Notes: a model not told the origin generated them from the sequence alone. A stretch of 64,000 nt of DNA from Candidatus Micrarchaeota archaeon (GCA_043805855.1 JAZDHP010000005.1:1132-65131); one strand, 5' to 3'; shown: positions 3,001 through 41,130, counted from the first letter of the stretch. Numbers and translations: made by a program.

Positions 3001-4008
3001 AGTTATTTCGCTGGAATTAGTAGTGTATTGAGAGAGATTATCACTTTGCGGAATTACCTTTACATAAACACTAGTTCCAATTGATGCAACTTCTGGAAAG
3101 CGAGCTACTCCGCTTTCAACTAAATCTTCGGCAAGTGGAGTTGACGTACCATCTTGGAATAACTCTACGCGAGCGTTCACTAAATTACCTTGGCTGTCTG
3201 TAACTCTAACAATTACAGTTCCTTTTATAGATTGGTCACCGCCATTATCGCGGTCGCCGTTCACTTCGGTTAATTGAATTGTAACTTGACCATCATTTGC
3301 CTGTACACTACGCTGTGCGTCTTCAAAATTTTCAGCTTGTACATTTAACGAAAGTACAGTGTCAAGAGAATCTAACTTAAGCACAGCTGTGCCGTCTGGC
3401 TGCGTTTCAACACTCCCCTGCACTCCAGTTGAAAGAGATTGAAAGTTTACAACTGCACCGCGCACTGGCGAATTCGTCGCTGCGCTTATAACCGTGACAA
3501 GAAAATCAACAGTTGTAGGCGTCAGTGAATTTAACCTAACATTTACACTCGTTGCTGCACCGCTAAAAGAAATTCGTTGGTTAACTGGAACAAAGCCATC
3601 TTTAGAAATTTTTACAACTGCTTGTTTGTTAGTTGGAACATTTTCAAAAGTAACAACGCCATTAACTGTATTTTTCGTTGCAAAATCAGTTCCGTCAACT
3701 ACAATTGTCACTGGAATAGTTGAATTTTCAGCTCCTGCAACATGCACAGTTACAGTTGCAGACGAGGGTATAAACGAAGACGAAGCAACGAAGAAAATGC
3801 CACCAAGCACAAGCAGGATAAGCGCAATTGCAACTGGAAATGAAGGAATTCCCCGACTTTCAATTGGCTCAACAAAATACTTGTAAAGGTCAACCCCTTT
3901 GTCGTGCAAATTATCTAGTAAAGCGTAGTACTTGTCTTCGACTTTATAGTAAAAAGCCTTTAATTTTCCAAGTAACCCAGTATCCTCTTCCTCTTGGTCG
4001 TACGGCAT
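1..4008 (-). CDS. Giant surface protein, 5' portion (gene continues beyond window start). N-terminal cytoplasmic tail plus TM anchor, repeated Ig/CARDB-like beta-rich domains, Q/Y/G/N-rich low-complexity tail. Paralogous in architecture to the 14660..21940 protein.
   Basis: Reverse-strand ATG at 4008-4006. Manual translation gives MPYDQEEEDTGLLGKLKAFYYKVEDKYYALLDNLHDKGVDLYKYFVEPIESRGIPSFPVAIALILLVLGGIFF... The frame checked open at 4008, 420, 360 and 60 with no stop. It is absent from the ORF track only because it runs off the edge. Only short plus-strand ORFs are listed in this 4 kb. Confidence 0.8.
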   Translation of the reverse strand, partial: MPYDQEEEDTGLLGKLKAFYYKVEDKYYALLDNLHDKGVDLYKYFVEPIESRGIPSFPVAIALILLVLGGIFFVASSSFIPSSATVTVHVAGAENSTIPVTIVVDGTDFATKNTVNGVVTFENVPTNKQAVVKISKDGFVPVNQRISFSGAATSVNVRLNSLTPTTVDFLVTVISAATNSPVRGAVVNFQSLSTGVQGSVETQPDGTAVLKLDSLDTVLSLNVQAENFEDAQRSVQANDGQVTIQLTEVNGDRDNGGDQSIKGTVIVRVTDSQGNLVNARVELFQDGTSTPLAEDLVESGVARFPEVASIGTSVYVKVIPQSDNLSQYTTNSSEITADEELEFSVQLLSITAGAGQKISITVNNDASAEIPAANVLIFASDSNRQIASGVTDDNGRVELNLASNIALEDIYVAITADGFLPLISTVANRDSTFMLVAFAAGNNVKFDAEVLNADLTPASGAHIELQDAAGRLYGIFALTGPDGKATFEGIPTDVSLRLFATLDSATGQSDVFEVAFSENEERVITFTLTRPVGAIRVFAKDLVDSNPVANSHVTAFVDSQGGQAVSNCTTNSEGSCLLEGVWANRDIYLVASGDGFESYLSDKVFVSPDQTKQLNVFLLAQAFRDQTIINLVSLVDDKGRDILNAPAIEKGRMYTAKFAASFANGSNRQGIFLRVGEEQSTANDPIVIKAFSFTPSAIGNPVATHSTTYNAGSECTNDLLNSDVNSEGKKWVQVDYNGISGVVELTARVFVKPTADPSKDKLAFHYRAFAVQNGKFARAPFDEELKLERRSQGKDECYATTIDKEFGLVEGSNVCNDDGSACITIYFTSSQQLQPVGSPFISTINRPFTLNYEVRSFGAVEGSSAYVKISSTTPLATLSDYSGDGTATFNDDDTSSRVLLVEAKELYTGSINAVGAIPADFVPFTVEFGDARGAIATHSRSFAVIQGTGALSITQLTPSEFEVGKAKDLKITIKTSSGSPVTDATLSFEEESGSPFDGDVPAQITGDSTTNNGENGIYVMKRIRTVAPGTFVVTASRDRFVPVTEEITSKVSLFFEFDQPDFISLSCNSTQLRVTNNLDVELTADIYVDPACVVVNGPGLTQVSAQGGQNGTLEYRLPNFKPGRTRVLTLIPNSRESCQIEISSTDPRTGTRSLDAPIQIENSCTSTSTNGNTTANGIIYINGNVFQPPRLIIDTFSNMFYGSYQPTNLYDPRFPDAASYLSPPMGGYAQTYQRMGLTDQYGNPVQQYAAAPGQYGAVGVPRSAALGTDPFAQNQYGAFGQQNAYGANGMNGQNSVGMYNGQFGSSGYPDASSGGMFDISRMNAQMNWTVAWVNQD

Positions 4009-4041
4009 GTTTTAAACGAGCCCCCCTCTACAAAAGATAGC

Positions 4042-4678: not shown

Positions 4679-5031
4679 ACAAAATCGTCAGAGTAGTACT
4701 TTCTCCAGAAGCTGAAGAAACGTATAAAATCTTGAATAGCCGCGCTGCTAGTTCTAAACTTGACAGTAGTATTTTAAAAGCGATTAACAAAAAAGTGGAA
4801 TTAATAAAAGTAAACACTCATTATGGAAACCCAATTTCAAAAGATAAGATTCCAAAAGAGTATAAACAAAAATACGGTGTGACTAATTTATTTCGAGTTG
4901 AACTGCCTCAATTTTGGCGAATGCTATATTCATTAGTTGACGGCAACTCACAAGTGGAAATAATTGCATTTGTACTAGAAATAAGCAACCACGGCAAATA
5001 CAATAAACTATTCAGGTACCACAAAAAATGA
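4675..5031 (+). CDS. RelE/ParE-superfamily toxin-like protein
   Basis: 118 aa. The C-terminal segment NLFRVELPQFWRMLYSLVDGNSQVEIIAFVLEISNHGKY resembles the RelE/ParE core (LWELR..G.YRIIY.V.D...V.IL.IGHR..Y). Small, with overlapping operon partners. Confidence 0.45.
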   Translation: MNKIVRVVLSPEAEETYKILNSRAASSKLDSSILKAINKKVELIKVNTHYGNPISKDKIPKEYKQKYGVTNLFRVELPQFWRMLYSLVDGNSQVEIIAFVLEISNHGKYNKLFRYHKK

Positions 5032-5459
5032 ACCACGAAGGACACTGGATTGTTGGTTGTATTACTGCACTAATAGCAATGCTTTTACTTCACGTTTTTT
5101 CACTGGAGTTAGTAGCGTTAGCGCTACTTGCCTCTATTTTGCCAGACGTTGATTTACGACACAGCACTGCGAGTAAGATCGTTGTTCCAATTGCTGCAAT
5201 TGCATTGGCTGTTTTTATTCACAATTTTATGACAATTGAAAACTTATCGTTCATAGCATCGTGGCTAGTTGCGCTTATTCTAGCGATTGTTTTACTAGCT
5301 TTATTTTTATTGCCTTTGCGTAAAAAGCACCGCGGAATTACGCATTCTTGGAAAGCAGCTGTTGTTTTTGGAATTACTGGAGGGATTTTTCTCGGTTTTT
5401 CAGGAGGTGTAGTTGCTTTTGCGAGCTACGCTAGCCATTTAATTGTTGACAAACTATAG
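5028..5459 (+). CDS. Membrane-bound metal-dependent hydrolase-like protein (YdjM/DUF457-like)
   Basis: 143 aa, 4 predicted TM segments. HRGITHS motif and an early His/Asp pair (PDVDLRHS) are typical of the YdjM family. Confidence 0.4.
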   Translation: MNHEGHWIVGCITALIAMLLLHVFSLELVALALLASILPDVDLRHSTASKIVVPIAAIALAVFIHNFMTIENLSFIASWLVALILAIVLLALFLLPLRKKHRGITHSWKAAVVFGITGGIFLGFSGGVVAFASYASHLIVDKL

Positions 5460-5481: not shown

Positions 5482-6378
5482 TCACTTTCTTCTCGGGAAA
5501 CGCAGTTCAGTGAAAAGCACTTTTCCAACGCGAGTTTCTTTAAAGCGATTTAAATTAGTTCTTGCAGTTTGTTCAACTATTCTACGCGGTTTTGACTTTT
5601 TGAAATCTGCAAATGCCTGTTTATCTGCAGTGTGTTCCATCAAGTGAGAAAATGCCAGGTAAGGTCCTTGCTTTTGCACAACTTTTTCAGTGAGGGTGAA
5701 AAGTTCCCCCATTCGCGCTAGTATTTTTTTCTTTTGTGCTTCTGATTTTCCGCGAAGTAAGCTCGAGAACTGGCGCCCTAGGGCAACTAGTTCCGCGGGA
5801 TAAATTACCCCTTCAGCGTGTGCTTTGTGCAACGTAACGATTAAACCCGGATTTTTTCTAAGTAACCCCACATAAGTCATTCCCGTGCTTTGAAGCCCAA
5901 CAATGGATTGGTCAACATTTGCTTTAGCTGGAGATAAATCTAGTTGTGTTTTAGGAAGTTGAGTTGTTCCGCTAAATAATTTACTCATCGCCACGTAAAA
6001 TTTGCTTTTTGTAGCTAGGGCAAGGGCTTGTTGGCTAGCTGTGGCTGAAGTTAAAGTGTCAATAGCTTTCGCGTATCGTTTTGCACCTAGATGCTTTTGA
6101 GCATTTAAAAAAACCGCGTCAAGCTGTTGGAGCACTGCTGGTTTTTTCTCAGCTGGTAGACGCGCAAATAAGTTAGCAAAGTTTCTCCCAACCTCTAGCA
6201 ATTCCGCGTCAGTTACGTTGCCAGTTCGATGCGCATTGTGTAAACCAACTAAAAAACTAGGGTCGCGCCTCAGCAAGCCGTGATACGGCATTTTGATTCT
6301 TGCAAAATTTTCAACGGCACTTTTAACCTCGGCAGCAGTTGGTTTTTTCAATTGAACAATAGCCACTAGTGAAAACAC
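5482..6378 (-). CDS. Hypothetical protein with two internal copies of the 'HG(W/L)L' module
   Basis: 298 aa. Internal repeat MPYHGLLRRDPSFLVGLHNAHRTGNVTDAELLEVGRNFANLFARL versus MTYVGLLRKNPGLIVTLHKAHAEGVIYPAELVALGRQFSSLLRGK. Confidence 0.6.
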   Translation of the reverse strand: MFSLVAIVQLKKPTAAEVKSAVENFARIKMPYHGLLRRDPSFLVGLHNAHRTGNVTDAELLEVGRNFANLFARLPAEKKPAVLQQLDAVFLNAQKHLGAKRYAKAIDTLTSATASQQALALATKSKFYVAMSKLFSGTTQLPKTQLDLSPAKANVDQSIVGLQSTGMTYVGLLRKNPGLIVTLHKAHAEGVIYPAELVALGRQFSSLLRGKSEAQKKKILARMGELFTLTEKVVQKQGPYLAFSHLMEHTADKQAFADFKKSKPRRIVEQTARTNLNRFKETRVGKVLFTELRFPRRK

Positions 6379-6381
6379 CTT

Positions 6382-7080
6382 TTACCTTGTTCGCTTTGAC
6401 CTGCGTTCAACTGCATTTAACTGTTTTGCCACTCGCTTCGCTTCTCTTATTCTCACAGCTTCTTCAGCTTTTGCTTTTTTCTCAGCCGTAGTTCGCGAAC
6501 GCCAATCTGCTTTCGATGCAAGATAACCTCTCAAGGCAGCAATGTGTAACTTGTGTCCTTCGTTAGCAGTTGTTAAATTTATAACCGCTTGGTCGATCAA
6601 ACCACTATGCCGCTCGCGGTCAGGTCCTTGTAGTTTAGCCGGTGCAACAAAAGCAAGCAACGTATTTTCCGGAGAGTGCCGCATTCGTTCAACAATTGAC
6701 AAATATTTTGCAACAGTAAAGCCACCTACTGCACCAGAAATTAAGCCAACAGCTGCCGGGTCTATTTTTTTAGCCAAAACTAACCCAACGCCACCTAAAG
6801 CTATAGCCGCGCCAACTGCAGTTTCAATTTTATCTAACCTAGCAGCACGCTTAGTCCTACCAGCAGTCCAAGGAACTTGGCCATCAAGCAAGTTTTCCTT
6901 GTGACTTTTCAACAGTTGGCCTAATCGTAAATTGAAAGCCATTGAATCATTGTGCTGATCGATAAGTCGCTTGGCTCCCCAACCAGTAAAAGGTTCTTTA
7001 CCCAACGCTTTTCCATCAGGAGTAGCGAGCGTTTTTCGCCTAATCCACTTAGTTTTTGCTATTGCTTTTGCATCTGCCAT
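6382..7080 (-). CDS. Hypothetical membrane-associated protein (glycine-zipper hydrophobic segment, basic coiled C-terminus)
   Basis: 232 aa. AVGAAIALGGVGLVLAKKIDPAAVGLISGAVGGF. It sits 3 nt from the upstream gene, which implies an operon. Confidence 0.55.
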   Translation of the reverse strand: MADAKAIAKTKWIRRKTLATPDGKALGKEPFTGWGAKRLIDQHNDSMAFNLRLGQLLKSHKENLLDGQVPWTAGRTKRAARLDKIETAVGAAIALGGVGLVLAKKIDPAAVGLISGAVGGFTVAKYLSIVERMRHSPENTLLAFVAPAKLQGPDRERHSGLIDQAVINLTTANEGHKLHIAALRGYLASKADWRSRTTAEKKAKAEEAVRIREAKRVAKQLNAVERRSKRTR

Positions 7081-7108
7081 TTTTTACATCACCGTTTTGA
7101 ATTTTTAC

Positions 7109-8125
7109 TTAAGGTCTTTCTCTTTCTTTTACCGCCTCAATGGGCTTTTCTAATAAACGTAAATCACATGATTTATTGCGACCAATTACAAACCTTCTCT
7201 CTTTACGCGGGTCAAATGTAAACTCCATATTTGCTGTTGCCCCTATTATCCCTCCAACAAGTGTAACTTTTCTCGGAGAAGCGCGTTTAATTACAAATAT
7301 ATTATGCCCAACACCAAAAGCGTGCCCTTGAGCTAGTTGATACAACGCCCCAACCCAACCACGTCCTTGGCTAGGATCAGACGGAAAAGATTCTTCGACC
7401 GTTTGGCCATCCTTAGTGAGTTTAAAAGTTTCTACTTTTGAATTCCACTTAAATACTGGGGTAAACCCAATTGACGCCTCTAGCCTTTTAGGCTGGGGTT
7501 TAGTATGCAAGTCTCTTACAAAAATTGCGCCGTCTTTGAAAAATACTTCAGCGTGGCGTGGCGAAACAATTGCGTTATCAGCGTGGACAACCGTATTTTT
7601 TCTCATTTCTCGATTTTCACGATAAGCACTAACGGCGGAAAGTATTGCTCTTGAGCCTCTTACAATTGGAGAACGTCGGAATTCAATTAATTTCTTTGCT
7701 GAATGAAGAATTAGCGCTCTTGGCTGGCGTGGTGCGCTAGACACGGCTGTCACTATTGGCAGTTCATCTGTACCGCTAAACCATTCTTGTTCTAACACCT
7801 CTGGTCCAATAAGCTCCGCTGTTCTTTGCAGTAAACGAACAGTAACTTCTCCAATATCGTGAACTCCAACCATAGTTGTTGCATGTGAAAGTGTCTTGGC
7901 AAACGCTTGCTTAGCTTTTTGTCGCTGTACTTCTGGCAGTTTGTCAAGTGTTTCAAAGTAAGTACCTAAACGCAGCAAATTTAAATGAGATACTTGTTTA
8001 GCTTGAGCTGCTTTTGCAAGAGCAGTATATAGTACATCTCCTTTTCCACGTAGCCAGCCGTAGCGTTTCATTTTAAGCCGTTTATAAACCTCTTCAGCTT
8101 CGTGTGGAGAAAATGCTTCAGACAT
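7109..8125 (-). CDS. FHA-domain protein with N-terminal RHGWL-type module
   Basis: 338 aa. N-terminus MKRYGWLRGKGDVLYTAL...LLRLGTYFETLD matches the module of family B. The FHA-like core is IVRGSRAILSAV...NAIVSPRHAEVFFKDGAIFVRDLHTKP, and a second degenerate RFVIGRNKSCDLRL sits at the C-terminus. Confidence 0.55.
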   Translation of the reverse strand: MSEAFSPHEAEEVYKRLKMKRYGWLRGKGDVLYTALAKAAQAKQVSHLNLLRLGTYFETLDKLPEVQRQKAKQAFAKTLSHATTMVGVHDIGEVTVRLLQRTAELIGPEVLEQEWFSGTDELPIVTAVSSAPRQPRALILHSAKKLIEFRRSPIVRGSRAILSAVSAYRENREMRKNTVVHADNAIVSPRHAEVFFKDGAIFVRDLHTKPQPKRLEASIGFTPVFKWNSKVETFKLTKDGQTVEESFPSDPSQGRGWVGALYQLAQGHAFGVGHNIFVIKRASPRKVTLVGGIIGATANMEFTFDPRKERRFVIGRNKSCDLRLLEKPIEAVKERERP

Positions 8126-9265
8126 ACTAATAAAATAGATAAATTACTATTTAACAATATGCACACGGCGCAACGAGTTAGAGAAGTAATAGAACGCCAA
8201 CAGTACGATGATTTGCTATTTTGGAAAAACCCGCTTTTGTTGCGAGAAAAGGGCAGATTAGCAAAAGGCGCAGAAGTGCACGGCAGCGCGTTGTCAATTC
8301 ACAATAAAGGTATAATTATAAGTGGCAAATCTGAATCTGGAAAAACAACAACTTGGTTTAATCTATTGCGCCACGGCGGCAAAGCAATAAGTGAAGATTT
8401 AACAAACTTAGTTTTCACTCCAAGCGCTGCGTTATTGATCTCTCCTGGTACGCGCCATGCATTTAGAATACACGGCAAATATCACCGCAGGTACACGAGT
8501 CAACCTGCGTATGGCGAAGTTGGACAAATGAAAAGCGGCGGCATTATTCCAAAATATATAGAGGCGCCTATGGACCCAACTGCACAGCAAACTGGAAGAC
8601 CGTTACACGCAGTGTTCTATATTGAAAAACAGCGCCTGCACCCTCGCGCCTATCCTCGCGTCGTTTTAATGGACGAAAATAAACTAGTTCACCATTTTCA
8701 AAGTGAAGATACTTCAACTTTTCCCTCTTCGTTCGACTTACCGGAAACGCACACCCGCGAATCAATACGTAGATTAAGCTGGAAAAGAAAAGAAGAAATA
8801 GCGCAGCGTGTGGTGCAACAGTTAAGAAAAGTAGGCGTGAATTTCTTTCAAGTTTACGTTCCAGAAACTAAAGAAGCTAAAAAACAAGCGTTAACTGCAA
8901 CGGCAATATCTAAATTTGCTAGAGGTTTTGTAGGTGGCTTTAAACCTGGGCTAAATTTACTTGCAATTAGTCACGAACATTCAGGCAAAGTTTTTCCAAT
9001 ATCTCGTTCAACAGTTATTGGAACAGCTGGAGACATTCGCTTAAAAGAAGATAAAACAATTGCCAGTAGGCACACTGCGTTTGAAAAAATAAAAGGCAAA
9101 TGGACTGCACGCGATTTAGGTACAAAAGCGCACACGCACATATTGAAAAAAGAACGCGTTGAAGCAGGTAAAGTTGACTGGCGCCGCTTGAAAGGCACAA
9201 TGGAAATTCAAGATGGGGATTTACTTGCAATTGGACACACATTTGTTCAAGTTGTCATAAAATAA
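8102..9265 (+). CDS. HprK-fold P-loop kinase-like domain fused to a C-terminal FHA domain
   Basis: 387 aa. HGSALSIHNKGIIISGKSESGKTTTWFNLLRHGGKAISEDLTNLVF aligns to the HPr kinase C-terminal P-loop (LHG.L....G.GVLI.G.SG.GKS..A..L...G..LV.DD). The C-terminus IGTAGDIRLKEDKTIASRHTAFEKIKGKWTARDLGTKAHTHI...DGDLLAIGHTFVQV is FHA-like. The annotated start overlaps the divergent gene by 24 nt, so the real start may be the Met at 8159. Confidence 0.55.
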   Translation: MWRKCFRHTNKIDKLLFNNMHTAQRVREVIERQQYDDLLFWKNPLLLREKGRLAKGAEVHGSALSIHNKGIIISGKSESGKTTTWFNLLRHGGKAISEDLTNLVFTPSAALLISPGTRHAFRIHGKYHRRYTSQPAYGEVGQMKSGGIIPKYIEAPMDPTAQQTGRPLHAVFYIEKQRLHPRAYPRVVLMDENKLVHHFQSEDTSTFPSSFDLPETHTRESIRRLSWKRKEEIAQRVVQQLRKVGVNFFQVYVPETKEAKKQALTATAISKFARGFVGGFKPGLNLLAISHEHSGKVFPISRSTVIGTAGDIRLKEDKTIASRHTAFEKIKGKWTARDLGTKAHTHILKKERVEAGKVDWRRLKGTMEIQDGDLLAIGHTFVQVVIK

Positions 9266-9320
9266 CACTTAGAAACACAAAACAGTAATCAAAAAAGGAC
9301 AGTTATCGAGGCGAATAAAA

Positions 9321-10103
9321 ATGGCGGTAAAAAATCGAGAAGAAAAGAGAAGGGAACTTGCAGAGTCGCTTATAGCTGGACGAAAAGCAGAGCGTGACGG
9401 TGGTTATGAATTAAGCCGAGGAATAAGCTCGTACAATAAATGGCTCGGGGTTACAATTCAAACTGAAGCACGGAAACTTGCAAAGAAGCATAAAACTCCA
9501 ATTGTAGCGCTTGATGCCGGCGGGGGAATTGGATTCGCAATGGCGGATTTGAAAAGCCGAATGAGAAGCAAATTAAAAACTGCTTACGTAACTAGCTTAA
9601 CCCAACATTTTCCACTCATAGGGGTAACTGACATTGCAACTAGAAAAACAACTTATAGCCCGATGCCTAGACCGTATCCAGCTGAAATCGCTCCAACTAT
9701 GCTCGTGGCGCACACTGAAAAAATACGCCTTCCATCTAGTTCAGTACACTTAATTACATCAGTAAGGGGAGCAACTTGGTACACGCCGCGCACTGTGCAC
9801 CGTTCAATAAAGGAACTTGCGCGTTTGCTAGTGCCGGGTGGAAAGGCGTTCTTGCATTTAACTGAACCTAACAAAGATATGGAAGCTAAGCTAAAACAAA
9901 TATTCAAAGGAGAAAATATCAGAGCACATTACTTATATGGCGTTGTTGCAGCTAAGCGCGGAGAAGGGACAAACGTAGAAAATATACGGCACGTGGTTGA
10001 AACTCAAGCGGAACGGGACAGGCTAGCAGAAGAACTCCAGCGAGGAAAGTACGACTACGTTACTAAATATAGATCACTGCGTTTAGAAAAAAGAAACCCA
10101 TAA
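9321..10103 (+). CDS. Class I SAM-dependent methyltransferase-like protein
   Basis: 260 aa. ALDAGGGIGFAMADL is a motif-I-like GxGxG, and VPGGKAFL is LKPGG-like. Confidence 0.4.
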   Translation: MAVKNREEKRRELAESLIAGRKAERDGGYELSRGISSYNKWLGVTIQTEARKLAKKHKTPIVALDAGGGIGFAMADLKSRMRSKLKTAYVTSLTQHFPLIGVTDIATRKTTYSPMPRPYPAEIAPTMLVAHTEKIRLPSSSVHLITSVRGATWYTPRTVHRSIKELARLLVPGGKAFLHLTEPNKDMEAKLKQIFKGENIRAHYLYGVVAAKRGEGTNVENIRHVVETQAERDRLAEELQRGKYDYVTKYRSLRLEKRNP

Positions 10104-10112
10104 AAGAGGCAA

Positions 10113-11366
10113 TTAACTTTTTTCCATTATGCGCGCAATTGCTTCAGCTGCGGCAGCGCGGTTGTCAAATGGCGTTCCGTGGCGTACGTCGCGCGATGGC
10201 TTTACAACTGGAATTTCTTTCGGGTCTGGCGGAACACGTACACTATAGAACCTTACCCCTTTTTGCGCTAGTTTAGAAACAACTAATTGTGAAAGTGCAA
10301 GTCGCTGTTCTTCATTTAGTTTAGTTTTAAGTGGATAAGTTTGCGGATATCCAAAGACTGTTGGAACGCCAACATCGTCTCGCTTTGCAAGGTAACGTGC
10401 CACGTGTTCTGCATTAACTTCAACAACTGCAGTTGACGGTGCAGCGTGAGTTTCCATGAGAAAAACCGCGTTGAGACGTGCTGGATTTACATTATCATGC
10501 AGTGGCGCGTTTTTAACTGACGGCACTGGCTTTCCTTTGAATATAATTTCAGGGTCCGACCCGTGTTTCCAAAAAGTTTCCTTTACCTCGCGCGGAAAAT
10601 CAGGAGAATCTGGAGAACCAAAAACTCCTTGGTGAAACATCCGTCCTCTTGAATAATATTGACTTGCCGCGCGGAATCCATATTTTCTATAGGGCCCGAC
10701 GACGTTTGCCCCTTTGGTTGAAAAAAGTATATGTACTCGGTCATCAGCGATTATTGAGCACCCGTGTAGATAACTAAGCAGAAAAGATAACCTACCTTTG
10801 CCAATTCGGGGATCTCCAATTAAAGCAAAGGCGCCTTTTTTTCCACACAGTACGTTACCGTGCAGCTCTGCGCCGGTTCTTCCAACTACGTTTTCTTTTT
10901 TCAAAGTGTGCTCTGGATCTTTGTGATAGTGAGTACCGTAAGCTTCTGGGTCAAAAAATTGCTGCTTATTAATTAATCTAGTTAAAGCAGTTGAAACGGA
11001 GCCAAGGTTAGCTTCGGGAACGTCAGAAATTCCCTGCATGGCTATTGGCGTTGCACTTTTTTGTAAATGGTGAAGGTCATCTAGCAATAAACTAGCAGCT
11101 AGAGCTGGATTTTGTTCAACTACTCTAGCGTGAGTTGCGACAAGTGGCAAAACATGTTGACGTACAAAATGATCTCCACGTGCATGGTAAAGCCCTAGAA
11201 TAGCATCGTTTATTCCTTTTACTGTTTTTGCAGCGTCTTCATTTTTTGAACCAATATCTGCAAGGCGAATGGCCATTCGGTCTCCACCGTGGCGCAGTAA
11301 GCCATAGGCGCGGATTCCATTTTTTTCAAACCACATTTTTGCATGTTCCATTTTTTCTATTGTCAT
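10113..11366 (-). CDS. HprK-fold P-loop kinase-like protein with N-terminal HG(L)L module
   Basis: 417 aa. LHGNVLCGKKGAFALIGDPRIGKGRLSFLLSYLHGCSIIADDRVHI aligns position-by-position to the HprK C-domain (degenerate Walker A, GKG). The N-terminus RAYGLLRHGGDRMAIRLADIG resembles the repeats of the 5482 protein. Confidence 0.5.
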   Translation of the reverse strand: MTIEKMEHAKMWFEKNGIRAYGLLRHGGDRMAIRLADIGSKNEDAAKTVKGINDAILGLYHARGDHFVRQHVLPLVATHARVVEQNPALAASLLLDDLHHLQKSATPIAMQGISDVPEANLGSVSTALTRLINKQQFFDPEAYGTHYHKDPEHTLKKENVVGRTGAELHGNVLCGKKGAFALIGDPRIGKGRLSFLLSYLHGCSIIADDRVHILFSTKGANVVGPYRKYGFRAASQYYSRGRMFHQGVFGSPDSPDFPREVKETFWKHGSDPEIIFKGKPVPSVKNAPLHDNVNPARLNAVFLMETHAAPSTAVVEVNAEHVARYLAKRDDVGVPTVFGYPQTYPLKTKLNEEQRLALSQLVVSKLAQKGVRFYSVRVPPDPKEIPVVKPSRDVRHGTPFDNRAAAAEAIARIMEKS

Positions 11367-11384
11367 AAACTTTCACTAGTTAAA

Positions 11385-13070
11385 TTAAACATTTTTAACT
11401 GCAGCTAGCACTTGCGGCCAAGTTTCTATTAAACCGGCATATTCGTGTAAACTTTGATGCATTTTTTCTGGAGGAATTACTGCATCGTAAACTTCGTTTC
11501 TTTTACTTGAACCAAACAGCGCCAAATTCCTTGTCAATTGTAGTGTTGCTTTTCTTAACTTAGGGTCGCCGTGCCACCAACTGCGTTTATCTGCTAACAT
11601 TTGGCTAGAACTTTTCACTTGGCTGTCCCACTTTGCAAATTCAGACGAAACGAGCCTTCGTATTTTTGCATGTCCAACTCGAATTGCCTCTGGAGTTGCG
11701 TTTATTTTTATTTGGCGAGCTAAATGTGCTGGCGAATCAGAGCGAACTATTTGTTTTAATACATCGTAAACTGGAAGAAAACTAATGCTTTGGCCATACT
11801 CGCGAAAGATTCCTCGCGAACTAGCTTTATGATGAAGCACGGGCAAATTAATTCGGTAAACTCCACCGTCAAGTAAACGATGCATTAACATGGACCAAGT
11901 TGAATCTTCACCGCGTAAATTAGCAGTTGGGTAAGGCACACTACGCGCAAGTATATCAGCCCGTAGAGTAACGTTTGCGCCGCCTAGACTTGAAGTTTTT
12001 TCAATTTCAGTTAACACCGGCGCATTTGGATCATAGTAGCGAACTCCTAAATTAAACGCGCCTCTTCGATTTATCCCTTGAGAGTAAGCTGAAAGTAAAC
12101 GAAACGCTTGGTTATAGCGCAAGTGTCGTCCAACTTCAGGCACTTCAGTTAATTGAGACGCTAGCCCACCTACTAACTCAGTTGGTTTTTTACCGCGTGC
12201 AGTTTTAACAAAAAGTCCAACTTTTTCAAGGAAAAACGGTATAAGCCGCTGTGGTTCTTTGATATCTTTAGTTACTCGGCCGCTCACTAATTTCACTCTT
12301 GAATTTGAAAACACTGAGTCAAGTTGGCTAAAGAAATTAAACAAATGGCTACGCGTAGGAACTGTTACTCCATTTGTTTTAGTTAAATGTAAATTTTCAA
12401 GTGCAATGTCATCGTCGAAGAAAGTTACTAAATCAGTGGGAGCAGCGTGGCGCATTGCAACTAGTAGAGATAAGTTGCGTACGCCGCCAAACCCGTGTTT
12501 TAATCTGCTTTTGTCAGGAAAGAGAAAAGGATCTAAACTAACACCCGATTTGGCACCTAAGCGAGAAATAAATTGCGCTTGTTTAGCTTTGTCATAATGC
12601 ACAACTTCAGCTAAGTGCGGGTACTTTTTACCAAAGCGTTCGAGAACCCTGGCATTGGCTTTTTCAAAACGCGGTTCAGTTGAATCATCAACAACCACAA
12701 TTTTTATTTTACGACTGTAACCAAAGCGCCTCATGTTTTCAACGATACTCTCAACACATCGATTCAAAAACAAAGGCCTATTTTGAGTCGGTATAACTAC
12801 TACGTGGCCAAAATTACCACGAGCAGTAGACGTAAAAGTAGCTGCTGGCCGTTGAAGCTGTGATTCGACATGCGGTGGTCTGCCGGGCGTTCCACCAACT
12901 GGCCCAAATAATAGCTGCGCTTTATCTGCAATTGACACTGGCCGCCCAGGTGACAACTGCTCGCGTCTAGCAAGTGGGTTTTGAAGCCCTAACCCGGTTG
13001 CTACAGCTCTAGATTGCTGCTCACGCTCAAGTGGGTTTCGAAGCCCTAAACCCGTTTTTACAACTGCCAT
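11385..13070 (-). CDS. Family 2 glycosyltransferase-like protein with N-terminal tandem peptide repeat
   Basis: 561 aa. VVIPTQNRPLFLNRCVESIVEN...KIKIVVVDDSTEP is the canonical GT2 N-terminus. The N-terminus carries TGLGLRNPLEREQQS/TGLGLQNPLARREQLS, a ~48-bp DNA direct repeat at 12960..13060. Confidence 0.6.
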   Translation of the reverse strand: MAVVKTGLGLRNPLEREQQSRAVATGLGLQNPLARREQLSPGRPVSIADKAQLLFGPVGGTPGRPPHVESQLQRPAATFTSTARGNFGHVVVIPTQNRPLFLNRCVESIVENMRRFGYSRKIKIVVVDDSTEPRFEKANARVLERFGKKYPHLAEVVHYDKAKQAQFISRLGAKSGVSLDPFLFPDKSRLKHGFGGVRNLSLLVAMRHAAPTDLVTFFDDDIALENLHLTKTNGVTVPTRSHLFNFFSQLDSVFSNSRVKLVSGRVTKDIKEPQRLIPFFLEKVGLFVKTARGKKPTELVGGLASQLTEVPEVGRHLRYNQAFRLLSAYSQGINRRGAFNLGVRYYDPNAPVLTEIEKTSSLGGANVTLRADILARSVPYPTANLRGEDSTWSMLMHRLLDGGVYRINLPVLHHKASSRGIFREYGQSISFLPVYDVLKQIVRSDSPAHLARQIKINATPEAIRVGHAKIRRLVSSEFAKWDSQVKSSSQMLADKRSWWHGDPKLRKATLQLTRNLALFGSSKRNEVYDAVIPPEKMHQSLHEYAGLIETWPQVLAAVKNV

Positions 13071-13095
13071 TCAACCGCCAGACTTAATTTTATAT

Positions 13096-14643
13096 TTACT
13101 TGCGCAAAATGCTGCTCACTATGTGCAAACGCTGTTCAGGTGAAAGCGAGTTATTGTGCGCTTCTGCTAAGAAAGCTAAAGCCACCCTTGCTTTATCCTT
13201 TGCATCTACTTCTATTGGCGCAAGTTGAAGGTTGCTAAAGTTCCTTACATTAAGGTTGCGTAACCCGCGACTGTGATAAGCTAATGTTGCTAAACTTTCT
13301 CTTGGCAATTCATGAGGCGCACCTGCAACAGAAGCGCCAACTTTAGCTAGTTGAGCCGACGTGTGAAAGGCAACCATCTGCTTTTGCAAAGGCGTTAACT
13401 TAATCGCATCTTCAGCGGTTTTTCCTATTCTAAGTTCATCTAGATTGTCAACTGAAGGTTTAGCACCTCTTGGACCTATGAAAAACTTATGCCCTTCGGG
13501 AATTAACCGGCTAATTATTTTGCTATTACCCCCTTGTGCCATTATAACCGTCTTTAACCTACTTTGGAAGTTTCTAATACTAGACGTGTTTAAAGCTGCA
13601 TTTGCAAATGACCGCATGTGGTCTGCGTTTATACTAGAACCAAACCCAGCAGCACTGACCTTAGCGCTGAATTCATTTGCATGGTACAGTAACTCATTAA
13701 GAGCATCACTGCGCATTGGTTCTTCGTTGCCAGCAAAGAAATGACGTGAAGGTTTATGAAGTGCTAAACCCCGCATCATTAAAGAGTGTAAGTGTAAATC
13801 TCTATCAGCGTACACTTCTCCCAAAGTGGCTTTAAGTATTCCAGCGCCGCTAGTTGCTTCGCCGCTAACTGCTGCTGGGTCTTCGCCGCTAACTGCCACA
13901 GTTGCAGCTGCACCTGTGCCATCTGGTTCAGAAACGTCAACATGCGCTGCACCCCCATGATCGCCTGGTTCTGATACATCTGGAATGTCGCCACTATGCG
14001 GCGCAGCTTCACCTTCAGAAACATCAACTGGATCTGGGTCAGGATCGTGTTTGTTTGGCTTTAACCCTAGGTCTTCAATTGCAGACAATATACCAGAAGC
14101 GATTTCGTCGCGAGCCGTGCTTTTGCTAAATAGCTCTCTCAAGTTAAAGCCTTTTCTACCTTTTGCAGCTTTCATGTAAACCGCAGCTACGTTTTTGCCA
14201 AAGAATCTCCTTCCGGCCACGTCAACCTGCTCTACAACGTCCTTGTGAGTCAAAACCTTTTCTAAATAACTTTTCCCTTGACGTGCAACTAAACGGCTAA
14301 ACTCCTTCTTAGCTTCAGTTCTACCTTCTTCAGTTGAAAGACTTTCATCTGTAAGTTTATACTTTCTATTTAAATATCTTAACTCTCTCTCTGGCAGTGA
14401 AAGCATAAACGAATGTATAAACGATTCCCGTACAATGGGAGGTCTACTAGCTAGTATCTTACCAGTTTTAAGAATAGCATTTTCCTGCCGGCGAGTCATT
14501 TGACCCATCGTGCCTAAAACGTCTGCAGTGTCTCTAAAGTAGTCCAACCTACCGCCGCGACGAGCCGCAACGAAACCAGGACGCAACCGCCTAACCGTTG
14601 CCTCACTTAAATTTCCCCTAACTGCCTTTTTCCACAAACCCAT
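13096..14643 (-). CDS. Hypothetical protein with acidic low-complexity linker (DPDPDPVDVSEGE...)
   Basis: 515 aa. Co-directional with, and 25 nt from, the GT2 gene. Confidence 0.55.
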   Translation of the reverse strand: MGLWKKAVRGNLSEATVRRLRPGFVAARRGGRLDYFRDTADVLGTMGQMTRRQENAILKTGKILASRPPIVRESFIHSFMLSLPERELRYLNRKYKLTDESLSTEEGRTEAKKEFSRLVARQGKSYLEKVLTHKDVVEQVDVAGRRFFGKNVAAVYMKAAKGRKGFNLRELFSKSTARDEIASGILSAIEDLGLKPNKHDPDPDPVDVSEGEAAPHSGDIPDVSEPGDHGGAAHVDVSEPDGTGAAATVAVSGEDPAAVSGEATSGAGILKATLGEVYADRDLHLHSLMMRGLALHKPSRHFFAGNEEPMRSDALNELLYHANEFSAKVSAAGFGSSINADHMRSFANAALNTSSIRNFQSRLKTVIMAQGGNSKIISRLIPEGHKFFIGPRGAKPSVDNLDELRIGKTAEDAIKLTPLQKQMVAFHTSAQLAKVGASVAGAPHELPRESLATLAYHSRGLRNLNVRNFSNLQLAPIEVDAKDKARVALAFLAEAHNNSLSPEQRLHIVSSILRK

Positions 14644-14659: not shown

Positions 14660-17600
14660 TCAATCATTATCTCCATTTTTAGCATTGTTACAATTAACGT
14701 CTGGTTTGAAATCTTTTCCTTCAAGCTCATCACTTACTCCATCGTTAGATATGACTGCACATACTTGTGGCAACGTCACTTTATTACCGCTGCGTAAATT
14801 ATACTCTCGCTCTGCGGTTTTTAAAACACGAACTGAAATTCCTGGGCTAAGGCCGCTAGCGGAACAAGATATCGTATCGTCAAGTTTAGCGGGTAAGAAG
14901 AATGGCCCGGGATTTGCAGCTTTCCATAAGTTTTCCACTGAAATTCCGCCAATGGCGCCAGCTAATCCAAGAATTATTGGACACCCAGCAATGTTTGTGC
15001 CCGGAGCAAAGCAAAGTAAACCAAGTGCAAAGCCAGTTAGTCCAATTGAATTGCCTCCACCGCAATTTCGCCCGATGGCTTTTTCATTATCGCGAACTTC
15101 AAACAAGTACTGGCCATTATTATTTCCTGTCCCTACAAACCGTAAGATAGCGGTAGTGCCACTTATCTTAAGCTTTGTAACATCATTTACACTAAAATTG
15201 TAAATTCCTTCGGTATTATCTGAGTCCGAAATTGCAAAATCCGCTAATTTCTTTATTGGTTTTCTAAATTTAACTTGGCGAATTAATTTATCCTCATCGC
15301 TATACACGTCAAAATTATAATGATAGTCTTCATTTAGCCACTTATCAAGTGGACCAAAAACAGAATAGAGTTCAACTTCAGCGACATCGACATCAACGCT
15401 ACCAACCCCCGTAAATGCCTTTGGTTTCTTTTTTAATTGTATAAACTTAGCTAATAAAAGAGGCGTTTCTACATTATCTATAGATTCTCCGCATATACGA
15501 GAATTGCCAACCCCAACACCTTCTCCAGATCGACCTAATACGTCTCCTAAACCTATCGGGTTGTCATAATGCAAATTACAGTCCATTTTATCACTGAATG
15601 CAGGGTCGTAAGCTGTAACAAACTTTATTTCTGGTTTTGATAAGTCAATTCCACCTAATCTAAAGTATTGCCCAGTAGCAAGTTGCACCGAATCACCGAT
15701 TTCTAACTGACATCTTAGCCAGTTTGGATTAGGCGCACTTATCTTTACACAATTTTTATCATAGTAAGCCGTATTATCAAGTCTAAAAGAAGCTTTAGCT
15801 TCACTAGTGTGGCAATCTTCATTTAAGTTTGGCCAATACTTACACATGTACCTTGTAGAGCTAGGCCTACTTTCTATTTCTGCTCTGAATGCAACTGGCT
15901 TTTTCACTTTGATGTGATTATTAGATATAACGTCAGCAGCAAGGAAAGAACTAGCGTCAAATGACACAGAACTGACCCCGTTATATATCTGCTTTGAACC
16001 TAAATCAATTAAACCAATTTGATCTATTTCGTTTTGATATTCAACGCGAAATTTAGCGGTCTCACCATCATATTTTGGATCAGTGCACAAACGTAAGATA
16101 AAACTATCTCCAGGAGCTATAGCATCGCCATCTTTCAAGTAACTAATTGTACCATCTACGTTGGTTTTTTGAAGTTCAATTGCGCTTGTAAGCGGTGCGC
16201 CTATTCTACCGCAAGCGTCGAAAGTTGCTTTGTTTAACTCAGTCGGCAAAGAAAACGGCGTTTCTGGGTAGTTTACAAACGATAACGGCGTAGCTTGCCC
16301 TTCTGCTTTTTGACCTGCCTGAGTCGTAACGATTGTTGGCCTAAAGCAATCAGCTGGATCACCATTCTTTTGCACACATTGATAGTATCGAGTTTCTAGA
16401 GTTGAAACGCCTCCTCCAACAGGCGCAGCTGTTTGTAGTTCTACTTTTATAGTATATTCATTTACCGCGTTTACTCCGACGTCACAACGGGAGAATTCAA
16501 GCGAATCAACTGCAGTTTCAGCAAGTGTTTTGTCAGCAACTTTGTAATTAGGCGCTTTTAGCGTGTACTTCTTTTGGTTTAGCTCGGTTACTTTTTGCGT
16601 TGTTTTATCTTTGCATGAATACTGAACCGCTATATACACGTCTTTTTTTCCTAGCGTTGCTAATCGTGTTTTGTCTAGTTCCACTTTAGTTGACACTTTA
16701 GTTAAACGATTCAAGTGTTCTGGAAAAGTTAGTCGAAAGATGTTAAACGTTGCTGGAGTTGCTGGTTTAAAGTAGCCGGGAGTTATTTTGTCAATTAGTA
16801 ATTGTCGGTCTGTTAAAGTAACTATACAATCATCTGAAACTTTTTGACCTGTTGGGTAAATTGCGCTTGCTTTGAAGCCAAATCTTTGACCCGTATCTCC
16901 TTTTACAGTATACTTTTGAGTATCGGCTTCTTTCGCACCGGTAAATGTTTGTTCATCAGTGAAAGAACCTCCAGTTTGTTGTTTTGTTACAATTACTTTA
17001 CGTTCATTTCCACCAGATGGAAAACTAGATTTTATTGTTAGTTCTTCACCAGACATGGCGTTACCATTGCAAACATCTTTTGTTCCGGCTAAAACTTGAA
17101 TTTTAGGTTGCTTGTTAGACGCACTTACTATTGGAGCCTCCACATGAGCCGGAGGTTCTGCTGGTTCAGCGGGGTTTAATTGTACTTGAGCCTCTGGTGC
17201 TTCTTTTGCTACTTTTGTTTGTTCGTAGGTAGCCATTATTTTAACTTCTACTTTTGCGTTTACATTTTGTGCTGAGGACACAAGTAGCTTTACAAATACT
17301 TTGCCGTCGTTTTCAAGTGCTTTTATTGCTCCTGCGTCGTCTTTAAAGTCGCAGTTTGTAATTAGCTCGTTGTCTTTTAGTTCAGCGTTGCAGCTAGCTT
17401 GTGATAGTTCACTGTTGTCTTTTGTTTGCACTGAAATTATCTTATACTTGTCAAATACAATTGGGCACGTTAGCTGCACTGTGACTGGGCTTGCGAATTT
17501 CCAAGCTGGCGTTACACTGACTTTCCTTGTTTCAGTTTCTCCGCATGCTGCGTCCCAAGTTTGTGCACCAAATGGAATTCCCGTTGGGCCGCCCATCATT

Positions 17601-29231: not shown

Positions 29232-29639
29232 TTGGTAACTTTTCAAATGGCTGAAACAAAACGTAGACTCGCTAAACCCAAATTACCAAGAACATTGGCG
29301 CTAGACGAACCAAGCGAATTCGAAAAAGTATTAGACGCAGCTAGGTATTTTGAAAGACACCGTGTGTTTAGCCACAGCTTACTAACTACACATCCACAAT
29401 TAGCAGTTGCAATACACGAAGCAGCTATGCGTAAAAGAATCAAAACCGCGCATCTACTCGAACTTGGAAAACACTTTTTTGATTTATCCCAACACGAAGA
29501 ACAAATTCACGAAATTCTCGCAACAGCAGAAAACAAAATAGTACAAGGGAAAAAAACACCTGCAGTGTTTAAGGAGATGCGCGAAGCAATTAGCCAACTT
29601 CACAAAAAGCACAGCCATCCAGCTAGAACCTGGTGCTAA
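29232..29639 (+). CDS. Small protein carrying a degenerate RH...LxxLGxHF module
   Basis: 135 aa. RHRVFSHSLLTTHPQLAVAIHEAAM...LLELGKHFFDLSQHEEQ parallels RHGWLPGPLKKAI...LREIGNHFVTISDVQ. Confidence 0.45.
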   Translation: MVTFQMAETKRRLAKPKLPRTLALDEPSEFEKVLDAARYFERHRVFSHSLLTTHPQLAVAIHEAAMRKRIKTAHLLELGKHFFDLSQHEEQIHEILATAENKIVQGKKTPAVFKEMREAISQLHKKHSHPARTWC

Positions 29640-32109: not shown

Positions 32110-32161
32110 AACAACTTATTTAAAAACTCGTTTACAGTAAACTACTTTAGGTGAAAACTTT

Positions 32162-33123: not shown

Positions 33124-33127
33124 AATT

Positions 33128-34283: not shown

Positions 34284-34335
34284 CTCCCCGACGTTACAAC
34301 TAACATATTTATACTTAGTTTGAATTGTTATTGTC

Positions 34336-36423: not shown

Positions 36424-36502
36424 TACACAGCTAAAGTGACATTATACCAATCAATAGCTACTTGGAAACGCTTTTATAAAACCGCTGCTAATTGTAGTAC
36501 AG

Positions 36503-40025: not shown

Positions 40026-41099
40026 ATGGCTAAAGAAGAATTGGAAAAGGCAAGGAAAGCACTAGAAAAAATGCCTAGACACGGCTGGCTGCCTGTACCT
40101 TTGAAAATAGCGCTTTGCAAAAGTCACCTGGATGGCGAAATAACTTCAGCTGAATTAAATTCACTCGGGGAACACTTTGTCACTATTGAAGACCCAAAAG
40201 ACGCGCAAGACATGTTGAAAAGCGCAACTGAACAATTACAAACCACTAACGCCAGAGTTGTGTTTTTAAATTTACATAGAGAAGCTGAAAAACTTGCCCT
40301 TCAAGTTAAAGCAATTAAAAACGCACCAGCTAATGATAGACTTTTCGTTGAAACAGTTGACCGCGATTCAAGACAAAAGTTAGAAATTCTCCCGCTAGAT
40401 TTACTTAATGAACTTAAAGCTGGGTTTGCTGAAAAAAAGCTAGATAAACTCGAGCTTGAAAACGCACGCTACGCGACTAACTTTTTCATTACCTTAGCAA
40501 GGGTAATTCCAAGCCCCTCAACCGCCGCGAAAATCCCCCCCACTTGGAGAAACGCAGTAACCGCAATTGCAAATAAAACAATGGAAATTCCCGAAGTTGA
40601 AGGTAAAGCTAGATACTTACACCGCGCGTTAACTTACATTGCCTATTGCGAAAAAGATTTACCTTTTTGGCACCGGCCTTTGACTCCTCAAGATGCAGTA
40701 CATATTGAAAACTTTGCAAAAGCACAAACCGCGCGGCTTGGAACACGGCACATTTCACCAACTACTTTAAGTGAATTACTTTACGTAAAAGGAATTAAAC
40801 CAAGGGACAAATATGGCCGCACAATTAAACTAAATGGTAGAATGACTTTGAAACATGCAGATATATTTAAACGAGAAATTGAACGTAGGCTTGACCCAAT
40901 TCACTTTAAAGTGCGAGTTGCACAAACTACATTAGAACCAAAGGCAAAAAGAAACATAGAAGTAACCGCACTTAGCTCAGAAGGCGACGATTTCTTAAGT
41001 GAAATAAAAACCCCAATATATCGAAGAAGGGTGGCTTTAACATTTAAAAAAATTACTAGACCTTTGTGGCCAAGGGCAAAAAGAGCAGAATTTAATTAA
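40026..41099 (+). CDS. Paralog family B member 1 (RHGWL module at N-terminus)
   Basis: 357 aa. KMPRHGWLPVPLKIAL...LNSLGEHFVTIEDPKDAQ, and C-terminal LDPIHF. Confidence 0.65.
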   Translation: MAKEELEKARKALEKMPRHGWLPVPLKIALCKSHLDGEITSAELNSLGEHFVTIEDPKDAQDMLKSATEQLQTTNARVVFLNLHREAEKLALQVKAIKNAPANDRLFVETVDRDSRQKLEILPLDLLNELKAGFAEKKLDKLELENARYATNFFITLARVIPSPSTAAKIPPTWRNAVTAIANKTMEIPEVEGKARYLHRALTYIAYCEKDLPFWHRPLTPQDAVHIENFAKAQTARLGTRHISPTTLSELLYVKGIKPRDKYGRTIKLNGRMTLKHADIFKREIERRLDPIHFKVRVAQTTLEPKAKRNIEVTALSSEGDDFLSEIKTPIYRRRVALTFKKITRPLWPRAKRAEFN

Positions 41100-41130
41100 T
41101 AAAAAGCAACAAATAAACTGGTGAAAAACA

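Follow-up and report, generated by a model that had tools for sequence, protein, structure and literature searches.

A conserved cassette between giant surface-protein genes

We analyzed a 64,000-nucleotide stretch of DNA (hereafter, the window) from a Candidatus Micrarchaeota archaeon (GCA_043805855.1, JAZDHP010000005.1:1132-65131), centering on a block of eight genes, p1 to p8, at positions 5482 to 14643. The block codes for two paralogous proteins with a P-loop kinase domain of the HPr kinase/phosphorylase (HprK/P) type, p4 and p6, together with a glycosyltransferase, a methyltransferase, FHA-like domains, and a small helical N-terminal domain that we call the N-module. This cassette, lineage-restricted and belonging to Micrarchaeota and related archaea, is tied to genes for giant surface proteins, and we tentatively read its products as an adaptor-coupled protein-modification complex at the membrane. 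An earlier inspection of the DNA alone (the sequence-only reading) had allowed for a DPANN episymbiont, and the organism is indeed a DPANN archaeon, in line with the archaeal rRNA genes of the window and with the identity of p4 and p6 to the NCBI proteins V1722_00245 and V1722_00255 from a Candidatus Micrarchaeota metagenome-assembled genome (75.5-kb contig). All eight open reading frames (ORFs) that it had delimited were recovered at the same coordinates, as were the giant-protein genes that it had placed on both flanks. Strand, extent, and content are as follows (nt, window positions; GA, Pfam gathering threshold; TM, transmembrane; SAM, S-adenosylmethionine; GT2, glycosyltransferase family 2).

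1..4011, minus strand: giant surface-protein gene, 5' part; inter-stop ORF, at least 1337 aa, continuing beyond the window start
5028..5459, plus strand: u3, YdjM-family polytopic membrane protein, putative metal-dependent hydrolase (Pfam YdjM 39.5 bits, GA 29)
5482..6378, minus strand: p1, adaptor-only protein with two N-modules (about nt 6028-6336 and 5617-5922; E 1.6e-28 and 2.6e-27)
6382..7080, minus strand: p2, small membrane protein with a hydrophobic region at about residues 84-127 (hydropathy)
7109..8125, minus strand: p3, N-module (about nt 7817-8113, E 9.6e-25) and degenerate FHA-like region (Pfam match at nt 7502-7600)
8159..9265, plus strand: p4, HprK/PEPCK-fold P-loop kinase domain (about nt 8186-8863) and predicted C-terminal FHA-fold domain (about nt 8948-9262)
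9321..10103, plus strand: p5, class I SAM-dependent methyltransferase with motif I LDAGGGIG (Methyltransf_11, PF08241)
10113..11366, minus strand: p6, N-module (about nt 11055-11360), helical linker, and HprK/PEPCK-fold domain (about nt 10227-10889)
11385..13070, minus strand: p7, glycosyltransferase of the GT-A (GT2-like) type, soluble, with a DDD motif; extended at the C terminus by a helical stretch of about 140 aa
13096..14643, minus strand: p8, conserved protein of no known fold, always between the giant gene and the GT2 gene
14660..21940, minus strand: giant surface protein of 2426 aa, anchored by a TM segment at the N terminus, with another hydrophobic segment toward the C terminus; co-directional with p8, p7, and p6

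The genome GCA_053535675.1 (locus L002), two Logan contigs (L002-L004 together), the ENA contig ERZ27297570 (51.6 kb), and L005 share with the window the gene order giant, p8, GT2, kinase, methyltransferase, kinase-FHA, N-module/FHA proteins, YdjM, giant. This order is also found in Micrarchaeota nzgw34 (L013) and in the much diverged L006/L007 (20-35% identity), where the cassette genes are all co-directional with the giant gene. Groundwater contigs L009-L012 carry a rearranged version consisting of a giant gene, two p8-like proteins, two kinases, an N-module-APH kinase, and a GT2 fragment, and L015/L016 hold further rearranged cassettes. A scan with the GT2 alignment returned one locus among genome contigs and two new loci in metagenomes. 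Orthologues are about 51-58% identical for p4 to p7 and 26-37% for p1, p3, and p8, the GT2 and the methyltransferase being the best-conserved members (53-58%). The block singled out by the sequence-only reading is thus kept in relatives, where it is likewise linked to giant surface-protein genes.

There are three apparent transcription units: the minus-strand giant gene (21940-14660) with p8, p7, and p6, an apparent operon with gaps of 16 to 25 nt; p4 and p5 on the plus strand; and p3, p2, and p1 on the minus strand. The arrangement around the 14660..21940 giant is orthologous in L002, L006, L013, and the ERZ27297570 contig. The giant of 1..4011 has a short cytoplasmic N terminus followed by a TM anchor (N terminus MPYDQEEEDTGLLGKLKAFYYKVEDKYY...IPSFPVAIALILLVLGG), and homologous giants hold its position in L002 and L007. 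Two small ORFs and u3 lie between this gene and p1. The u3 protein, with five hydrophobic segments by hydropathy, has an orthologue of 53% identity in L002 and a homologue at the same position in L007, and its YdjM gene is the cassette border in variants A and B. Hydropathy gave no TM segments or signal peptides in the cassette proteins except p2 and YdjM. No orthologue of p2 was found in the related loci; its match to CyanoTRADDas_TM (the cyanobacterial TRADD-N-associated 2-TM domain) is below threshold (22.7 bits, GA 24.3). PADLOC gave no match, so a known defense system is unlikely.

The sequence-only reading had also assigned a GT2 glycosyltransferase and a SAM-methyltransferase-like gene to the block along with hypothetical proteins, and both assignments pass their Pfam thresholds. 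p7 matches Glycos_transf_2 (PF00535) with 27.0 bits (GA 23.3) over model positions 2-46 of 168, within the N-terminal 50 residues only. It has no PDB relative by sequence and no TM segment; its orthologues are 35-58% identical, and the motifs IPTxNRP, VDDS, FxDDD, and GGANV..RA are invariant (VDDS and FxDDD in three orthologues). The match of p5 to Methyltransf_11 (23.5 bits, GA 21.2) covers model positions 1-94 of 95, and its orthologues are 49-53% identical; p5 itself is devoid of an N-module, and the L002 orthologue (352 aa) has one fused (E 4e-18). Kinases, a GT2, and a methyltransferase are a typical glycan-tailoring set, and the P-loop and APH-type kinases might phosphorylate a sugar or lipid, building together with the other two enzymes a phospho-methyl-glycan that decorates the giants. 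The kinase fold is common to PEPCK, and an APH-family enzyme does occur in variant L009 (64 bits). However, Pfam and NCBIfam scans found no flippase, oligosaccharyltransferase, polyprenyl-phosphate transferase, or nucleotide-sugar genes in the cluster, the enzymes are all soluble, and the sequence motifs are those of HprK and not those of PEPCK. A metabolic pathway would also leave FHA domains and adaptor-only proteins hard to account for, and we consider this explanation unlikely.

The protein encoded between the giant gene and the GT2 gene, p8, has no match in Pfam or PDB. Its central acidic linker (nt 13846-14043) contains short tandem Ser motifs (VSEG, VSEP, VSEP, VSGE, VSGE), and the orthologues carry other Ser-acidic repeats in the same place (DVSEP three to four times, VSASEEPYTSGAHEE twice, SPYSGxxEE three times). 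p8 is a candidate substrate of the cassette enzymes. The p8-like proteins of the distant variants (L009 4015-8625 and L016 33-506; 581 aa and 932 aa) consist largely of Pro/His/Ala/Gly/Tyr-rich low-complexity sequence and keep the conserved motif SxxARxxxGRxLDxLxxxGHxP common to p8.

HprK-like proteins and FHA-fold domains

p4 and p6 had been proposed to contain the C-terminal P-loop domain of HprK/P, and profile searches found it. p4, for which NCBI annotates the ATG at 8159 (368 aa) and the GTG at 8102 gives 387 aa, matches Pfam Hpr_kinase_C with an E-value of 6.4e-6 (26.2 bits, below the GA of 33.3) over model positions 2-53 of 171, and the NCBIfam HprK/P model TIGR00679 with 3.3e-6 (26.6 bits against a cut-off of 240). 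On its own, p6 has no match to Pfam or TIGR00679, but its paralogy with p4 is clear (24% identity over 222 aa; E 5e-12, small database). When a profile of 12 family sequences was compared with the PDB, the five best chains were all HprK/P (E 2.7e-9 to 8e-5), with an alignment spanning HG...GvlliGdsgvGKs...L...Gh.aiadDrv, and a profile of the p4 family alone matched HprK/P only. The PEPCK-like alpha/beta fold of the HprK/P catalytic domain is found in this family, as the earlier observation had implied.

Membership in the known HprK families, which the sequence-only reading had suggested checking, was rejected. The relative P0008 exceeds the GA of Hpr_kinase_C (40.0 bits against 33.3) and reaches 38.9 bits against the TIGR00679 cut-off of 240; the best scores for HprK-related kinases A (TIGR04352) and B (TIGR04355), both with a cut-off of 200, were 18.8 (P0008, A) and 20.4 (P0002, B). 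Family members thus reach 15-39 bits against NCBIfam cut-offs of 200-240, and p4 falls 10-fold below the equivalog cut-off. The MurE-like N-terminal domain of HprK/P and its total length of about 310 aa are missing as well: in p4, about 30 residues precede the kinase domain and the FHA domain follows it, and in p6 the helical N-module stands in its place. Unlike HprK/P, p6 has GKG and not GKS/T, p4 has ED and not DD, the host is archaeal, the neighbors are surface-protein genes, and there are no phosphotransferase system genes in the context (none among the scanned proteins of the window). p4 and p6 are a separate branch of the HprK/PEPCK-fold superfamily. This HprK-like family is extremely rare. 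Word-indexed searches returned two relatives of p4 and three of p6, and a joint p4/p6 profile, run exhaustively with HMMER against 1.84 billion representatives, gave 74 matches with E of 1e-3 or lower, eight of them below 1e-10. The weak tail consists of proteins of about 300 residues aligned in the P-loop region only, and all eight non-family proteins scanned have a sub-threshold Hpr_kinase_C match. A further search with the 12-sequence profile added at least one new relative, P0010, among the matches listed.

The catalytic motifs differ between the two paralogues, as had been noted from the sequence. p4 (387-aa numbering) has HG at 60-61, the proper Walker A GKSESGKT at 75-82, and ISED at 96-99, with HG, GKSESGKT, and SED invariant in three orthologues. 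In p6, HG (169-170) and IADD (206-209) accompany a degenerate Walker A, GDPRIGKG (184-191), in which the Ser/Thr that is the usual Mg2+ ligand is replaced by Gly in all four orthologues and the Walker Lys is kept. Since its Walker A, HG, and acidic ED pair are intact, p4 probably acts as the ATP-dependent kinase of the pair, and p6, given the invariant Gly, is probably catalytically impaired and a regulatory or scaffolding pseudokinase. The distant variant L009-L012 has two adjacent paralogues, both with canonical P-loops; therefore, the pairing of two such proteins predates the degeneration of p6.

The Pfam entry PF27840 (ScmC) is flagged weakly, in precomputed annotation, on the relatives P0008 and P0010, and the N-module fusion pattern resembles that of the recognition elements of peptides made on the ribosome and modified after translation (RiPPs). 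The cassette might be a natural-product cluster of the RiPP kind, with a small ribosomal peptide as the substrate tailored by the HprK-like kinase, comparable to phosphorylated lasso peptides and ScmC cassettes. HprK homologues of the lasso-peptide clusters of paeninodin and pseudomycoidin phosphorylate a Ser of the co-encoded peptide; the phosphoserine product can then be glycosylated, and methylation is a parallel tailoring step in related clusters (PMC8498205). Our family resembles these peptide kinases in being a divergent stand-alone HprK fold with weak scores for HprK-related kinases B (15-20 bits) and A (17-19 bits), but these scores are far below 200, and the candidate substrates are large and the kinases joined to FHA domains and N-modules. 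Pfam and NCBIfam scans of p1-p8 and the flanking ORFs found no lasso cyclase or protease, radical-SAM, PqqD-like, or exporter gene, there is no conserved small precursor ORF in the cluster or the orthologous loci, and the genes always sit with giant-protein genes. A peptide natural product seems very improbable to us. The same literature is nevertheless a precedent for the protein-modification complex that we favor, with a kinase of this fold acting on a co-encoded polypeptide (PMC8498205).

The last 105 or so residues of p4 match Pfam FHA with 19.9 bits (GA 20.7) over model positions 9-67 of 67. The four members of the p4 family score 19.9, 19.4, 22.7, and 22.3 bits, two of them above the GA, and all of the matches are near whole-model (from position 3 or 9 to 65 or 67). 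This C terminus also matches the related Yop-YscD_cpl model, and the four best PDB matches of the four-sequence profile were FHA domains with marginal E-values (1uht, 0.021). Canonical FHA domains bind phosphothreonine (pThr) through the residues GR, SxxH, and NG, of which only the Gly and the His are invariant in the p4 family: the Arg position reads T/T/K/R, the Ser position S/A/D/A, and Asn-Gly is replaced by Ala-His in all four. The earlier claim that p4 is fused to a pThr reader thus has support as regards a probable FHA fold, whereas pThr reading is doubtful because the positions of Arg, Ser, and Asn are variable or hold other residues. Besides, HprK-type kinases are Ser kinases, a poor fit to a pThr reader. 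To judge from these residues, the C terminus would be an FHA-fold domain that possibly does not bind pThr. The exhaustive HMMER search found the HprK-fold/FHA fusion only in the p4 family.

The FHA-like core that had been noticed in p3 scores above the GA (23.3 bits against 20.7) but covers just 33 residues (model positions 8-40), the p3 orthologue (26-37% identical, with the same C-terminal motif) has no Pfam match to FHA, and a two-sequence p3 profile had no PDB match, so that the assignment is weak. In L007, the same part of the gene order is occupied by a 569-aa protein of the architecture N-module-FHA-FHA-TM (Yop-YscD_cpl 48.7 bits, GA 33.2), which makes a degenerate FHA domain in p3 plausible, although BLASTP gave no link between the two. 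The possibility that p3 and p2 are a split version of this protein was dropped for the same lack of significant BLASTP similarity. After the FHA-like core, the C terminus of p3 (7109-7160) has an isolated FHA beta1-beta2-like motif, RFVIGRNKSCDLRLL, and the orthologue in L002 (14580-14660) ends with the equivalent PFLIGRHPSYDLRLL; this could be a truncated second FHA domain or a circularly permuted one.

FHA-dependent control of envelope machines is known from PpkA/Fha1 in type VI secretion, mycobacterial FhaA/FhaB, YscD in type III and EssC in type VII secretion, and ArnA/ArnB in Sulfolobus. The cassette shares with these modules a kinase paired with FHA-fold proteins, some of them membrane anchored and of the YscD type (L007), and a linkage to surface or secretion genes. 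It might be a purely regulatory switch, a reversible Ser/Thr-phosphorylation checkpoint that gates an envelope machine (the giant adhesins or a pilus-like filament) in the way of PpkA-Fha1, FhaA/FhaB, or ArnA/ArnB, the GT2 and the methyltransferase being mere neighbors. The FHA folds of p4 and of the anchored N-module-FHA-FHA-TM proteins, the N-module genes that bracket a T2SSE/T2SSF/pilin locus (see below), and the fact that HprK/P is a reversible kinase/phosphorylase count in its favor. However, the GT2 and the methyltransferase belong to the system, since they are its best-conserved members and are fused to N-modules in some lineages. The pThr-contact residues are largely missing, the cassette kinase is of the HprK and not the Hanks fold, and a Pfam scan found no Hanks kinase or PP2C phosphatase in the cluster. 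We give such a switch a minor, though appreciable, chance; it overlaps with the modification complex in which we would place the same kinases.

The N-module and its surroundings

The sequence-only reading mentioned a recurring novel N-terminal module. The recurrence is real, but what had been treated as a side remark is the organizing principle of the cassette, because the N-module is fused to every cassette enzyme type in some lineage. A hidden Markov model (HMM) built from a seed of 18 instances detects the domain twice in p1 and as single copies in p3 and p6 (E 1e-24 to 1e-28). The L002 cassette has a p1 orthologue of 304 aa and a one-module ORF of 142 aa. In the structural model of p6, the N-module is predicted with high confidence as a five-helix bundle (residues 6-103); it has no relative by sequence in Pfam or the PDB.

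Across the related loci, the N-module is joined to HprK-like kinases (p6, P0008, P0010, and P0012), to an APH-type kinase (L009, 395 aa, APH 64 bits), to a methyltransferase (L002), to a GT2 (L016, 720 aa, in two divergent copies; hhalign probability 89%, E 2e-6), and to FHA-FHA-TM (L007, 569 aa). Another fusion, to a TM protein in L016, shows an FHA-like stretch by eye only, with no Pfam match. The N-module also occurs with several further domains that have no known family, alone, or in tandem, and the same enzymes are found without it in other lineages. We dropped the idea that the N-modules of one genome are always nearest each other, as the kinase-type modules (HG[YW]LP..[LF]K) cluster across genomes. 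Within the window, the HMM recognized four proteins that were not in the seed (E 7e-12 to 6e-9).

29232..29639, plus strand: stand-alone N-module protein of 135 aa (E 2.2e-10), directly upstream of a T2SSE-type ATPase gene
40026..42468, plus strand: two N-module proteins of 357 aa (40026) and 445 aa (41131) (E 2.2e-9 and 5.9e-9), directly downstream of pilin-like genes
49767..50951, plus strand: N-module protein of 394 aa; first 90 residues 67% identical to the 41131 protein, remainder unrelated

Neither of the C-terminal domains of the 40026 and 41131 proteins has a Pfam match. The similarity between 41131-41400 and 49767-50036 (67% over 90 residues, ahead of unrelated C-terminal domains) suggests recent recombination or domain shuffling in the N-module gene family. 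The genes at 29232, 40026, and 41131 bracket a type IV pilus/archaellum-like locus on the plus strand (29836-39989). Its T2SSE-type ATPase (29836, 757 aa) has some 400 aa in the N-terminal region, which is unusually long. The locus also contains four small ORFs, a polytopic T2SSF-like protein (34336, 695 aa), and five pilin-like ORFs (36503-39989) with class III signal-peptide-like N termini (e.g., RGQAFETMMLVISVIVALAILG). The N-module seems to link cytoplasmic proteins with envelope machinery in general.

In this behavior the N-module resembles the effector-associated domains (EADs) of bacterial conflict systems, coupling adaptors fused to differing enzymes that also occur alone and proposed to work by homotypic interaction (Kaur et al. 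2020, PMC7159879). Like EADs, it is small, all-alpha, and non-enzymatic, is fused terminally to diverse domains encoded by adjacent genes, is absent from the same enzymes elsewhere, and has extra copies in the genome. Unlike EAD systems, the cassette has no component of the vWA-MoxR, STAND, or GAP1 GTPase type, where an NTPase core would carry a copy (in line with the negative PADLOC result); its host is an archaeal episymbiont, and the N-module is partnered not with death-type effectors but with kinases, a glycosyltransferase, a methyltransferase, and FHA proteins. An N-module that serves as a targeting or secretion domain, sending polymorphic enzymes into the host archaeon through the contact of the giants or through pili, could be imagined from the conserved N terminus on unrelated C termini in the 41131 and 49767 proteins, and from the number of N-module proteins, at least eight within 64 kb and each close to surface or pilus genes. 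Kinase, glycosyltransferase, and Fic-type activities also belong to the classic repertoire of effectors, and there is a Fic gene at 51972. Three points make translocated effectors improbable: the N-module is also found on a membrane-anchored FHA protein and on adaptor-only proteins, a better fit to intracellular coupling; the enzyme set is conserved and orthologous across genomes, not polymorphic; and there is no translocation ATPase inside the cassette.

Several other features of the window deserve mention. On the minus strand, an ORF of 164 aa (24194-24688) has a sub-threshold match to exosortase EpsH (21.6 bits against 25.7) and may code for an archaeosortase-like protein relevant to surface-protein processing. 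A PemK/MazF toxin gene (28120-28476, plus strand, 70 bits) and, in L002, a PIN-domain gene with a 77-aa partner adjoining YdjM (16481-17129) place toxin-antitoxin-type genes at the edges of surface-gene islands. Three plus-strand paralogues of about 235 aa (28486-29193, 52914-53621, and 53627-54319), 33-43% identical and with no Pfam match, lie one beside the pilus-like locus and two in tandem after the Fic-domain gene (51972-52892). A minus-strand gene (42482-44509) codes for a 675-aa protein with N-terminal TM segments, long Lys/Glu/Val-rich repeats (KKVE type), and a Cys-rich zinc-ribbon-like C terminus (CPTCHSK...CPYCGTGMCANCS...CPKC), again with no Pfam match. The archaeal 23S and 16S rRNA genes (56452-60704 and 61332-63768, minus strand) greatly exceed the Rfam models in length (4253 against 2987 nt and 2437 against 1478 nt), and LAGLIDADG homing-endonuclease ORFs lie in or adjoin them (58015-58575, 62398-62931, 56954-57619, 55952-56518, and 54706-55404), which indicates multiple rRNA introns.

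A possible protein-modification complex at the membrane

Considering these data together, the explanation that we favor, with somewhat less than even confidence, is an adaptor-coupled complex that modifies proteins at the membrane and is tied to the giant surface proteins. The N-module, a helical domain of about 100 residues, would gather cytoplasmic modifying and binding proteins there. N-modules would join p6, p3, and p1, and p4 might be recruited through its paralogue p6, which would supply the N-module that p4 lacks; in other lineages the GT2 and the methyltransferase would be brought in by N-modules of their own. The FHA-fold domain of p4 would be a docking module for a protein or peptide and not a canonical pThr reader, p7 and p5 would be further tailoring enzymes, and p3 and p1 would be adaptors, the equivalent of p3 elsewhere being the membrane-anchored N-module-FHA-FHA-TM protein. 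The likeliest substrate would be co-encoded, either the Ser-acidic repeats of p8, the cytoplasmic tails of the giants, or both. The complex would phosphorylate this substrate, perhaps with glycosylation and methylation as later steps, and would in this way govern how the surface proteins mature or are deployed; the cassette is presumably co-expressed with them.

Some observations weigh against this scheme. The surface proteins are mostly extracellular and the enzymes cytoplasmic, and N-module proteins are found beside the pilus-like locus and elsewhere, so they are not specific to the cassette. A sugar or lipid substrate is a possibility to be kept in view, because the kinase fold is common to PEPCK, a small-molecule kinase, and the APH family consists mostly of small-molecule kinases. 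At the sequence level, the match to the Pfam HprK_C model is limited to its first third, the GT2 and methyltransferase assignments come from weak and partial profile matches, the FHA domain of p4 is without the canonical Arg, Ser, and Asn, and the repeats of p8 could be a mere disordered linker. The fold evidence comes from p6 and not from p4, whose AlphaFold2 model, made from a three-sequence alignment, has a low mean confidence (pLDDT 35.8, about 25 in the C-terminal region), so that for p4 the kinase fold and the FHA fold (an 11-stranded beta sandwich) are assigned from sequence profiles.

Each catalytic fold of the cassette is known. However, we came across no account of the fusion of the HprK fold with FHA, of the pairing of kinase and pseudokinase, of the N-module, or of the link between the cassette and giant-protein genes; the profile libraries gave no family assignment, and literature searches on DPANN with HPr kinase and on SynChlorMet retrieved no paper. 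The HprK/PEPCK-fold kinase superfamily is hereby extended into archaea with a new kinase-FHA architecture. DPANN archaea depend on physical contact with the host cell, and giant surface proteins are prime suspects in this contact, but to our knowledge next to nothing has been learned of their production, modification, or control. The cassette provides clonable candidates: a probably active non-Hanks kinase, a pseudokinase partner, a glycosyltransferase, a methyltransferase, a repeat-bearing candidate substrate, and an adaptor domain. The latter, a helical coupling domain undescribed in the sources that we searched, can be used to trace more members of the network in DPANN genomes. Something more fundamental may lie in the N-module system, though the chance of this is modest. 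As a long shot, the N-module may be a DPANN-specific targeting or coupling domain that recruits diversifying enzymes (HprK-like and APH-like kinases, a glycosyltransferase, a methyltransferase, FHA proteins, and several domains of no known family) to the contact apparatus (giants and pilus-like filaments), some of them acting on or entering the host, and, if this were true, N-module recruitment would be the first recognizable effector-recruitment system of an archaeal episymbiont.

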